A stretch of DNA of 64,000 nt, taken from the NCBI RefSeq assembly GCF_003334765.1, contig NZ_QOWT01000004.1; one strand, written 5' to 3'. Made by a program: the position numbers and the translations under genes. Source of the stretch: Escherichia coli. Its GTDB lineage: Bacteria > Pseudomonadota > Gammaproteobacteria > Enterobacterales > Enterobacteriaceae. Shown here one piece after another: positions 43,498 to 51,525 of this stretch (position 1 is the stretch's first letter; every line of letters starts with the position of its first letter). The notes under the pieces were generated by a model. The model was not told the origin of the DNA, did no database searches, and worked only from the letters and a program-made list of their open reading frames with translations.

Positions 43498-45687
43498 TCA
43501 GAATTGATACGTGCCGGTAATGCTGAAATTACGCGGTGTGCCGTAGACGATAGAACCTTCCACGTTGGTATCGTAGGTTTTGTCGAACAGGTTATTGACG
43601 TTCCCCTGTAACGAGAAGTTTTTCGTCACCTGGTAGCGGGTGAAGAGATCCACCAGCGCGTAGCTACCTTGCTCGGCGCGGAAGGTGCCATACGGCGTCA
43701 CGGTGTCGGTATACACGCGATTTTGCCAGTTAACACCACCGCCGACCGTCAACTCTGGCATGACAGGCAACCGATAGCTGGTGAACATTTTAACCGTGGT
43801 GCGTGGCAGATTAGGATTAACGGCGTTTCCTTCGTTATCCTCTGCAATATAGCGCGTTGCGCCAAATGTCAGCTGCCAGTTGTCGGTAATTGCGCCGTTG
43901 AGTTCAAATTCCACCCCTTTACTGACTGTCCCATCCACCGCTTTATAGGCGGTTTCGCCGTTGCTGCCGGGGATAGGTGTACCGGTGGACTGAGCGACAT
44001 TATCCTGCTCAATACGGAAGATGGCTAACGTGGTGGTCAGACGGCTATTCATCCAGTCCGATTTCAGACCCAGCTCGTAGTTGTTACCGGTGATTGGAGC
44101 CAGATATTTGCCTGAACTGTCACGATCATTTTGCGGCTGGAAAATAGAGGTATAGCTGGCGTAGGTCGACCAGTTGTCATTGATGTCAAACACCAGACCA
44201 GCGTAAGGCGTGGTGTGGTTTTTCTCCATGCTGTAAGTCAGCGTATCAACCCGCCAGTTGGTATAACGTGCGCCGAGGATCAGATGCAGCGGATCGGCAA
44301 GGGTGACACGAGTGGCAGCATATAACGATTTCATATGTGTGGTATCGTCCTGCGCCAGGCTCTGTGGTGACCAGTCGGTTTGTGGGAAATTGCCATTAAA
44401 GTTGTAGAAACTGCCAATTTCATCCGGGAAGATGTTGGCCCATGAACTGAAGTAACGATTGTTTTGTTTGCTGTAACTGCCACCAAACATTAGATTGTGC
44501 TGACGACCAAACAATTCATAACTACCGTCAGCGAACAAATCCAGCGCATCAACTTTACGTTTGCCACTGTTCCAACCGGTGCCGCCGACATAATCAAAGC
44601 CAGGTCCATAATTACTGTATGGCCCAACCAGCATACCATCCGCTTTGTTTACATAGGCATCGACATACATCATTTTGCTGTCAAATTCGACTTCAGAGTG
44701 GGTGGCATTCAGTGTCGCTTGCCAGGTATCAGCAAACTGCTGCTTCAGGGTCATAAAGACCTTGTTGATCTCTTTATCGTTGTACGCCCAGTCAGGTGCG
44801 GTACTGCGTGCGCGATCGTAACTGTTGCTGCTGCCATCAGTATTCCAGCGCGGTAAACCGCCCCAGGTAGGGCTATTAACATCAATGCGCTGATATTCGT
44901 AACCGGCTGAAAGCGTCGTAAGATCGCCTAAATCAGCATCGACAATGCCCGAGAAGAAGGTCTTTTCACTGTTGTAGCGGTCCAGCCATGAGTCGTTATT
45001 CTGGTAGCCGCCGACAATTCGCGCGCGGATTTTACCGTCTTCGGTGAGTGGGCTTTGTAAATCCGCCACATACCGTTCTTTGTTCCAGCTACCGTATTCC
45101 GCCGAGACATCGCCTTTAAATTCACGACTGGTCGCGTGTTTTCGAACCATATTAATTGCCGCAGATGGATTACCCGTCCCGGTCATGAGTCCTGTCGCGC
45201 CACGCACTACTTCTACGCGTTCAAAGAGTGCCATATCAGAAAGTGCGTCGCCCAGATTCCAGCGCGATTCAAAATAGGTGGGGATACCATCAACCATATA
45301 GTTATCGATCTGGAATCCGCGGGAATAATAAAGAGCACGATCGGAATCCGCCTGACTTTTGCTGATCCCCAGCGTGTTTTCCATCACTTCGCCCAGCGTT
45401 TGTAACTGCTGATCTTCCATCCGCTGCTGGCTAACAATAGTGACCGACTGAGGAATATCACGTTGAGTCATCTGCATTTTGGTACCCGCAGAGGTAGACG
45501 TTACGCTGTAATCATTTTCGCCATCATCTGGAGCTGTGGCTGAACCCTCAACAATCACCGTTTCTTCAGTGGCTGGTGCAGCAAAAGCGGCAGAAGGTAA
45601 TAGTGCCAGTGCTATGCAACCGGCAAGTAGTGACGGTTTGGTGATGGCTTGATATTGATTATCCCTGTTAAATTGTGTTGAAAGCAT
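43498..45687 (-). CDS. fhuE: TonB-dependent outer-membrane receptor FhuE (ferric coprogen/rhodotorulic acid), 729 aa
   Basis: ORF-track protein MLSTQFNRDNQYQAITKPSLLAGCIALALLPSAAFAAPATEETVIVEGSA...; C-terminus ends in aromatic residue (TGTYQF). Confidence 0.95.
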   Translation of the reverse strand: MLSTQFNRDNQYQAITKPSLLAGCIALALLPSAAFAAPATEETVIVEGSATAPDDGENDYSVTSTSAGTKMQMTQRDIPQSVTIVSQQRMEDQQLQTLGEVMENTLGISKSQADSDRALYYSRGFQIDNYMVDGIPTYFESRWNLGDALSDMALFERVEVVRGATGLMTGTGNPSAAINMVRKHATSREFKGDVSAEYGSWNKERYVADLQSPLTEDGKIRARIVGGYQNNDSWLDRYNSEKTFFSGIVDADLGDLTTLSAGYEYQRIDVNSPTWGGLPRWNTDGSSNSYDRARSTAPDWAYNDKEINKVFMTLKQQFADTWQATLNATHSEVEFDSKMMYVDAYVNKADGMLVGPYSNYGPGFDYVGGTGWNSGKRKVDALDLFADGSYELFGRQHNLMFGGSYSKQNNRYFSSWANIFPDEIGSFYNFNGNFPQTDWSPQSLAQDDTTHMKSLYAATRVTLADPLHLILGARYTNWRVDTLTYSMEKNHTTPYAGLVFDINDNWSTYASYTSIFQPQNDRDSSGKYLAPITGNNYELGLKSDWMNSRLTTTLAIFRIEQDNVAQSTGTPIPGSNGETAYKAVDGTVSKGVEFELNGAITDNWQLTFGATRYIAEDNEGNAVNPNLPRTTVKMFTSYRLPVMPELTVGGGVNWQNRVYTDTVTPYGTFRAEQGSYALVDLFTRYQVTKNFSLQGNVNNLFDKTYDTNVEGSIVYGTPRNFSITGTYQF

Positions 45688-46020
45688 TTGAAATCTCTTG
45701 GTTTATGTTGTCGTCAGGCTCATGCCGGAGGAGGGTGATGAGCGATTATATTTAGTGTGCGAATAATTTTGTTTGTAAATGCAAATGAGAAATATACGCA
45801 TTCATATTTGTCATGTAAACCAAACAGAGAATGTCTTTTCAGCGCATTCGCAGGCAGAAATGGGAATAATGGCGATATATACGGCAGCAAAACGATTTTT
45901 TGCTTAAGAAATCGTGAGTTAAGGTTGAAAGAGCAGGTTTAACTCGACCATACTCTATACTCGCAGTGTGGCGCGGCGTAGCATGGCGCAACGCATGGCT
46001 ATTTGAAAAAGGAAAATGTC

Positions 46021-46380
46021 GTGGCAGAAGAAACTATATTCAGCAAAATTATTCGTCGTGAGATCCCCTCCGATATCGTCTACCAGGATGATCTGGTAAC
46101 GGCGTTTCGCGATATTTCGCCGCAAGCGCCAACGCATATTCTGATCATTCCGAATATCCTCATTCCGACTGTGAACGACGTCTCAGCTGAGCATGAGCAG
46201 GCGCTGGGACGCATGATCACCGTAGCGGCAAAAATTGCTGAGCAAGAAGGTATTGCCGAAGATGGCTATCGTCTGATCATGAATACCAACCGCCATGGCG
46301 GACAAGAGGTTTACCACATCCATATGCACTTGTTGGGTGGCCGTCCGCTGGGACCAATGCTGGCGCATAAAGGTCTGTAA
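46021..46380 (+). CDS. hinT: HIT-family purine nucleoside phosphoramidase HinT, 119 aa, GTG start
   Basis: ORF 46003-46380; recalled protein begins (M)[23 protein letters not shown] at GTG 46021; HIT motif HIHMHLLGG present. Confidence 0.9.
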
Positions 46381-50084: not shown

Positions 50085-50220
50085 TTTTGGTATGACCAAT
50101 GCACCATTCATGTTATTCTCAATAGCGAAGAACATTTTCATTGCTGTAACCTGTTGTTAATTAAGAGCTATGTTAATAACCATTAATTAACAATTGGTTA
50201 ATAAATTTAAGGGGGTCACG

Positions 50221-51525
50221 TTGACTACGCCATTGAAAAAGATTGTGATTGTCGGCGGCGGTGCTGGTGGGCTGGAAATGGCAACACAGCTGGGGCATAA
50301 GCTGGGACGCAAGAAAAAAGCCAAAATTACGCTGGTCGATCGTAACCACAGCCACCTGTGGAAACCGCTGCTGCACGAAGTGGCGACTGGCTCGCTTGAT
50401 GAAGGCGTCGATGCGTTGAGCTATCTGGCCCATGCGCGCAATCATGGTTTCCAGTTCCAGCTGGGTTCCGTCATTGATATTGATCGTGAAGCGAAAACAA
50501 TCACTATTGCAGAACTGCGCGACGAGAAAGGTGAACTGCTGGTTCCGGAACGTAAAATCGCCTATGACACCCTGGTAATGGCGCTGGGTAGCACCTCTAA
50601 CGATTTCAATACGCCAGGTGTCAAAGAGAACTGCATTTTCCTCGATAACCCGCACCAGGCGCGTCGCTTCCACCAGGAGATGCTGAATTTGTTCCTGAAA
50701 TACTCCGCCAACCTGGGCGCGAATGGCAAAGTGAACATTGCGATTGTCGGCGGCGGCGCGACGGGTGTAGAACTCTCCGCTGAATTGCACAACGCGGTCA
50801 AGCAACTGCACAGCTACGGTTACAAAGGCCTGACCAACGAAGCCCTGAACGTAACGCTGGTAGAAGCGGGAGAACGTATTTTGCCTGCGTTACCGCCACG
50901 TATCTCTGCTGCGGCCCACAACGAGCTAACGAAACTTGGCGTTCGCGTGCTGACGCAAACCATGGTCACCAGTGCTGATGAAGGCGGCCTGCACACTAAA
51001 GATGGCGAATATATTGAGGCTGATCTGATGGTATGGGCAGCCGGGATCAAAGCGCCAGACTTCCTGAAAGATATCGGTGGTCTTGAAACTAACCGTATCA
51101 ACCAGCTGGTGGTGGAACCGACGCTGCAAACCACCCGCGATCCAGACATTTACGCTATTGGCGACTGCGCGTCATGCCCGCGTCCGGAAGGGGGCTTTGT
51201 TCCGCCGCGTGCTCAGGCTGCACACCAGATGGCGACTTGCGCAATGAACAACATTCTGGCGCAGATGAACGGTAAGCCGCTGAAAAATTATCAGTATAAA
51301 GATCATGGTTCGCTGGTATCGCTGTCGAACTTCTCCACCGTCGGTAGCCTGATGGGTAACCTGACGCGCGGCTCAATGATGATTGAAGGACGAATTGCGC
51401 GCTTTGTATATATCTCGCTATACCGAATGCATCAGATTGCGCTGCATGGTTACTTTAAAACCGGATTAATGATGCTGGTGGGGAGTATTAACCGCGTTAT
51501 CCGTCCGCGTTTGAAGTTGCATTAA
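50221..51525 (+). CDS. ndh: Type II NADH:quinone oxidoreductase NDH-2, 434 aa, TTG start
   Basis: ORF 50194-51525; recalled protein begins (M)[53 protein letters not shown] at TTG 50221, preceded by GGGGG; two GxGxxG dinucleotide folds. Confidence 0.93.

Follow-up and report, generated by a model that had tools for sequence, protein, structure and literature searches.

The stretch of DNA analysed here (the window, 64 kb in its entirety) was K-12-type E. coli chromosome, and a 901-bp query around the site in question matched 5426 of 5426 complete E. coli genomes with annotated fhuE and hinT. The fhuE coding sequence occupied 43498-45687 on the minus strand (729 aa, ATG at 45687), and hinT started on the plus strand at 46021 with a GTG according to the RefSeq annotation. 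The spacer between the two genes (45688-46020, 333 bp) was 100% identical to that of MG1655, and window positions were converted to NC_000913.3 by adding 1,115,864. The original prediction had described a divergent, GTG-start hinT sharing this 333-bp region with fhuE, with coordinates and context that proved correct, and had called the fhuE upstream region AT-rich, in agreement with a GC fraction of 0.36 in 45688-45820 versus 0.41 in the entire spacer. The predicted hinT promoter (45925-45954, plus strand; TTGAAA, 18 nt, CATACT) stood apart from the fhuE operator at a distance of more than 100 bp, and its -35 region was conserved in orthologs. For fhuE, a consensus scan predicted a minus-strand promoter with a -35 of TTTACA (45814-45819) and a -10 of TATATT (45791-45796) separated by a 17-bp spacer, the two hexamers matching at 10/12 positions. 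Going by where the predicted -10 lies, the 5' untranslated leader of fhuE would be about 97 nt long (45688-45784, minus strand). The leader contained a stem-loop, GCUCAUCACCCUCCUCCGGCAUGAGC (45718-45743, minus strand), which was not part of the Fur site.

Consensus and matrix searches of the spacer

The classical Fur consensus GATAATGATAATCATTATC with up to 3 mismatches had 0 matches anywhere in the 64-kb window. Its top match in the spacer was 11/19, reached at 45781, 45787, and 45759, and mononucleotide-shuffled spacers gave a mean best match of 11.4 (P(≥11) = 0.87). The 15-bp form TGANAATNATTCTCA with up to 3 mismatches gave 24 matches versus 16.4 expected; 15-bp consensus forms were discarded as locators, as their match counts were near chance and the fhuE site was not singled out. 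Since 11/19 was at the level of shuffled sequence and the 15-bp forms were near chance, consensus alignment cannot place the box. The original prediction had reached the same view on the basis of a best alignment of about 9/19. This figure was the correct count in the register of the true fhuE site but not the best of the spacer, which was 11/19. Alternative candidates in the spacer were 45759-45777, with 11/19 to the classical consensus, and the positions 45762, 45756, and 45750, with at most 1 bit each; all were rejected because none was conserved in other genera.

The spacers of 17 classic MG1655 Fur targets, fhuE not among them (fhuA, fepA-fes, fepD-entS, fepB-entC, fiu, cirA, exbB, tonB, yncD-yncE, sufA, ydiE, mntH, nrdH, nfeF-nfeR, feoA, ryhB, and fhuF-yjjZ), then served to learn a Fur matrix de novo by palindromic one-site-per-sequence EM with 308 seeds. 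The top six seeds all converged on AATGATAATCATTATCATT with 16.2-16.4 bits, a motif in the 7-1-7 register that is 3 bp off the classical 19-mer. The top match of this matrix in the spacer was 45784-45802 on the minus strand, with 7.8 bits (10.0 on a uniform background) and rank 4 among the 63,982 positions of the window. This core 19-bp box, centred at 45793, read AATGCGTATATTTCTCATT on the fhuE sense strand and AATGAGAAATATACGCATT on the plus strand. It agreed with the learned consensus at 13/19 positions, with TGATAATNATTATCA at 9/14, and with the ChIP-exo motif TGAnAATnATTcTCA at 10/13. Its dyad, AATGCG-TATATTT-CTCATT, lay in the 7-1-7 register (TGATAAT-N-ATTATCA) with the outer G4 and C16 retained. 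A second, weaker Fur-like register, TATATTTCTCATTTGCATT, was found at an offset of 6 bp (45778-45796, minus strand) with 2.4 bits (5.2 on a uniform background).

By sequence score alone the fhuE site was marginal. The matrix picked the site but proved nothing on its own, because the leave-one-out median of the training regions was 16.8 bits versus 7.8 bits at fhuE, a score that was also reached by dinucleotide shuffles of the spacer at P = 0.057 and by 4 of 203 window tiles. According to the original prediction, 45688-45820 should hold a Fur box, to be checked by a PSSM scan, comparison with a published site, and Fur ChIP data. The scan did place its top spacer match inside that interval, at the marginal score just given.

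Other Fur-like sequences in the window scored higher than the fhuE box. The highest score of the window, 11.5 bits, belonged to AATGATATTTATTTTTATT at 3261-3279, just upstream of a minus-strand ORF (2615-3256), and the MG1655 list has no Fur ChIP-exo peak in its vicinity. The matrix is therefore not decisive in either direction, as its strongest match in the window was without a ChIP-exo peak. Another sequence, 50232-50250, had 9.4 bits and 14/19 to the classical box and was located at the start of a long plus-strand ORF (50194-51525), which is probably ndh to judge from the gene order. No ChIP-exo peak is listed for 50232-50250. In published Δfur RNA-seq data, ndh had a log2FC of +0.39 (Gao et al. 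2023).

Fur occupancy and Fur-dependent expression of fhuE

Published binding data were mapped to the window. Chen et al. (2007) predicted a Fur site of fhuE with 12.4 bits at 1160880 of U00096.2, which corresponds to window position 45793, the very centre of the box picked by our matrix. In Dataset 2 of Gao et al. (2023), the MG1655 Fur ChIP-exo peak P31 (1160863-1160895) is assigned to fhuE, is intergenic and present under iron-replete conditions only, and is marked in the table as also found in the earlier study of Seo et al. This peak mapped to 45776-45808 (33 bp). The W3110 peak P41 of the same study (1163221-1163233 of NC_007779.1; iron-replete, 'R') mapped to 45780-45792 through the annotation of NC_007779.1 itself, the sequences being identical. 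The offset between U00096.2 and U00096.3 was checked at cirA, mntH, nfeF, and feoA, where peaks of 30-35 bp centred within 1-1.5 bp of boxes of 15-21 bits; the centre of the fhuE peak was 1 bp from its box. The ChIP-exo peaks of two K-12 strains thus covered the box, and the matrix, the published site, and ChIP-exo converged on 45784-45802, within the interval where the box had been expected. We define the extended Fur operator as 45776-45808 (no strand assigned), the 33-bp ChIP-exo footprint, which was also the block conserved in orthologs.

A further peak, P32 (46078-46111, inside hinT and assigned to this gene), was considered as an operator and rejected: it was without a motif (-9.8 bits) and was present in both iron conditions. 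Motif-less satellite peaks of 30-35 bp like P32 also flanked the primary peaks at fhuA, fepA, cirA, mntH, and nrdH, at distances of 100-300 bp. In the MG1655 sheet of Dataset 2 (Gao et al. 2023), the gene labels of P37 and later peaks appeared to be one row off; the label acnA, for instance, stands at the peak at 1309033, which lies upstream of tonB. P31 precedes this shift and is labelled correctly.

Expression data agreed with occupancy. In MG1655 Δfur, fhuE had a log2FC of +5.02 (p = 1.8e-113, about 32-fold), and values in the other seven strains for which one is given ranged from +3.0 to +8.4, so that all values were positive in the 8 of 9 strains with a value (Gao et al. 2023). The divergent hinT had a log2FC of -0.17 in MG1655 Δfur, which was not significant. 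Fur was also found to repress a fhuE promoter-lacZ fusion (Beauchene et al. 2015), and the table of one paper lists Fur as the sole regulator of fhuE. The original prediction had linked the existence of a box to Fur-dependent expression of fhuE, and this dependence was borne out by the Δfur effect of +5.0 log2 units and by the lacZ fusion.

These data bear on two alternative explanations. According to the first, Fur would control fhuE only indirectly and the spacer would be devoid of a true operator, a proposal in keeping with matrix and consensus scores that were not significant alone. It is contradicted by the ChIP data, with peaks in two strains, as well as by the agreement of three independent lines of evidence in position and by the deep conservation of the block, and we give it next to no credence. 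The second alternative holds that a site inside fhuE itself, TTTAACAGGGATAATCAATATCAAG (45648-45672, minus strand, fhuE sense strand; codons 6-14), is the functional Fur site or a key auxiliary one, acting as a roadblock or as a cooperative partner. With up to 2 mismatches allowed, TGATAATNATTATCA had its sole match of the window here, and at 14/19 the site was also the joint best match to the classical 19-mer in the window; the matrix found two registers in it, offset by 6 bp, with 8.0 and 4.3 bits, and its score had P = 0.034 versus shuffles of the segment from -85 to +60. However, no ChIP-exo peak is listed for it in MG1655 or W3110, by a method that at other genes separates peaks lying 100-300 bp from each other. 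Nor was it conserved outside K-12-like E. coli: the segment scored at most 1.0 bit in E. whittamii and E. coli E69, carried a substitution in ST131, and read CCAGGGATGG in other genera. A functional role of the intragenic site is thus very unlikely, and the operator is better placed at 45776-45808.

Conservation of the box and of the leader

The fhuE promoter was further compared across species, with one genome taken per species. The scan yielded 54 fhuE loci whose FhuE identity ranged from 98% down to 55%, and 51 upstream regions were examined. A 19-mer of the degenerate box pattern was present in 51 of 51 ortholog promoters, from Escherichia to Pantoea and Rahnella, and the distance from box centre to ATG was 95-123 nt in 50 of them. 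The box persisted even where FhuE protein identity dropped to 55-67%. It took the form AATGCGTATATTTCTCATT in 23 orthologs, AATGCGTATATTTCGCATT in 21, AATGAGTATATTTCTCATT in 4, and single variants in 3; in 44 of 51 the 19-mer was AATGCGTATATTTC[T/G]CATT. Outer positions G4 and C16 were 98-100% conserved. Rarer variants came nearer to the consensus, with 11.8 bits in Buttiauxella and Pantoea ananatis, 14.1 in Rahnella, and 14.7 in Mangrovibacter, and the variant common in Citrobacter, Enterobacter, and Leclercia had 3.8 bits.

Among 49 distinct ortholog promoters, the mean majority frequency was 0.97 in the 19 box columns versus 0.45-0.67 in the flanks, and it was 0.93 in the six bases past the core box that hold the second register 6 bp downstream. 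Upstream conservation was otherwise limited to TGTTTACA, which contains the predicted -35 and whose distance from the box was constant, to the Shine-Dalgarno/ATG region, and to the hinT promoter region. Within E. coli, at least 4436 of 5426 genomes carried the exact 33-mer 45776-45808. The substitutions that distinguish K-12, ST131, and strain A7 fell in the spacer between -35 and -10 and just downstream of the block, with none inside it. The predicted -10 was invariant in orthologs, and part of the conservation of the block must be due to this hexamer and not to Fur.

Secondary Fur-like sites of 5.5-11.4 bits were also observed downstream of the primary box. They were lineage-specific and occurred at non-homologous positions: -19 in Citrobacter (loci L026, L028, and L029 of the ortholog set), +2 in Leclercia and Lelliottia (L046 and L051), -76 in Superficieibacter (L072), and -8 in Kluyvera cryocrescens (L036). 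Most lineages with a secondary site had the weaker T15G variant in their primary box. The secondary sites reached P < 0.05 versus shuffles in 6 of 25 representatives, taxa that are not independent of each other. It seems that different lineages acquire such sites downstream of the primary box at places that are not homologous to one another.

With its 3' end some 31 nt before the ATG, the leader stem-loop at 45718-45743 was followed by an A/C-rich single-stranded tract. Across the segment from -78 to -22 relative to the ATG (loci L019-L072), a hairpin occurred at the same place in nearly all of 23 representatives with stem sequences that were unrelated. Its local folding had a median z of -1.4, with 16 of 23 representatives below -1, and compensatory changes were seen in within-clade alignments. 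In the Leclercia/Enterobacter clade, 92% of cells paired and 5 of 10 pairs changed on both sides; 0-3 of 500 shuffles reached the observed values, and slid controls were far lower. Folding energy of the whole leader was not unusual (z = 0.37 in E. coli, median about 0 in the 51 orthologs), and a search of the fhuE leader against Rfam gave no match at E ≤ 1. It is conceivable, though we consider it doubtful, that this stem-loop, conserved across Enterobacteriaceae in position and pairing and not in stem sequence, constitutes an undescribed post-transcriptional element of fhuE. If so, it could control how stable the mRNA is or how it is translated, or serve as a dock for a small RNA or Hfq.

Predicted promoter overlap and relation to other Fur operators

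The Fur dyad was centred on the predicted -10 TATATT, which occupied positions 7-12 of the box, and both promoter hexamers were conserved in orthologs. This overlap accounted for part of the mismatch with the learned consensus, from which the box departed at 6 positions. Three of them (7, 10, and 11) turned AAT[C/G]AT into TATATT. C14 was the common 'TTCTCA' variant, as in the strong sites of ryhB, fhuA, exbB, and mntH, and is also part of the published motif TGAnAATnATTcTCA; G6 was the mirror of C14 in the opposite half-site. The outer TG...CA positions were retained. The box looks weak because its central six bases must spell the predicted -10 hexamer, TATATT in place of AAT[C/G]AT.

It could be argued that the block is mainly a core promoter, or the AATGCG-N7-CGCATT site of another dimeric regulator, with Fur being secondary or incidental. 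The non-consensus positions 5, 6, 7, 10, 11, and 14 of the box were indeed conserved as well as the consensus ones, and AATGCGTATATTTCGCATT, the form present in 21 of 51 orthologs (L023-L032, L046-L056, L067, and L072), was a perfect 6-7-6 palindrome yet had 3.8 bits for Fur, below the E. coli form. In an informal comparison by eye, none of the motifs of Zur, CRP, PhoP, ArgR, NrdR, and PurR fitted the block. On the other hand, the predicted -10 accounts for positions 7, 10, and 11, and the variant of strong Fur sites for the symmetric G6/C14 pair. Moreover, the in vivo binding of Fur coincides exactly with this block and occurs in replete iron only, loss of fur alone derepresses fhuE about 32-fold, and no regulator besides Fur appears for the gene in the table mentioned above. 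Given Fur occupancy and the size of the Δfur effect, a second regulator or a pure promoter is not needed, and we regard such an account as very unlikely.

Iron-replete-only occupancy, Fur-dependent expression, deep conservation, and the positional agreement of PSSM, ChIP-exo, and published prediction are shown, and the promoter hexamers, the start site, the number of dimers, and occlusion are inferred. We are highly confident that Fur acts on fhuE through a degenerate box lying on the predicted -10, with its centre at 45793, its core at 45784-45802, and its occupied extent at 45776-45808, where Fe2+-Fur would occlude the promoter. A literature search on the fhuE promoter turned up neither a mapped transcription start nor a footprint or mutational data, and the box sequence did not occur in the paper texts searched. 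Promoter occlusion by Fe-Fur of the ordinary kind is the most likely mechanism. When iron is replete, Fe2+-Fur would bind the block, probably as two dimers on overlapping sites 6 bp apart, and the bound Fur would occlude the -10 and the probable start region at about 45784, turning fhuE off. When iron is scarce, Fur would depart and the predicted sigma-70 core promoter, which is strong and near-consensus, would fire. Clustered Fur sites are reported to be spaced by 6 bp (Chen et al.), and a register with this offset inside the conserved extension, combined with a footprint of 33 bp, suggests two Fur dimers at fhuE.

The biological import of these results is small, since it had already been published that Fur controls fhuE and where its site lies. 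The present analysis adds the overlap with the predicted promoter, a reason for the mismatches, and phylogenetic footprinting of the box. For methods, the lesson is that an operator may be real, repress strongly, and be deeply conserved, and yet escape consensus matching and be marginal for a PSSM, in this case because the centre of the operator doubles as the predicted -10 hexamer. The fhuE site was placed by occupancy data and phylogenetic footprinting, not by motif score.

Compared with canonical E. coli Fur operators that overlap the core promoters of genes for siderophore receptors and transport (cirA, fiu, fhuA, fepA-fes, fepB-entC, mntH, and feoA), the fhuE operator shared the palindromic 19-bp box in the 7-1-7 register, the ChIP-exo footprint of about 33 bp centred on the box, occupancy in replete iron only, and strong derepression in Δfur. 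The length and centring of its footprint (delta 1 bp) matched those of the cirA, mntH, nfeF, and feoA operators, and the position of its box was identical to that of the literature site (Chen et al. 2007; Gao et al. 2023; Seo et al. according to the table of Gao et al.). It differed in its score, with 7.8 bits versus 13-22 bits at canonical operators, in its centre, which was the predicted -10 hexamer instead of AAT[C/G]AT, and in having one strong register only, whereas canonical operators have a multi-site cluster. The fhuE site is an ordinary, already known member of the Fur-operator class with an unusually low score.
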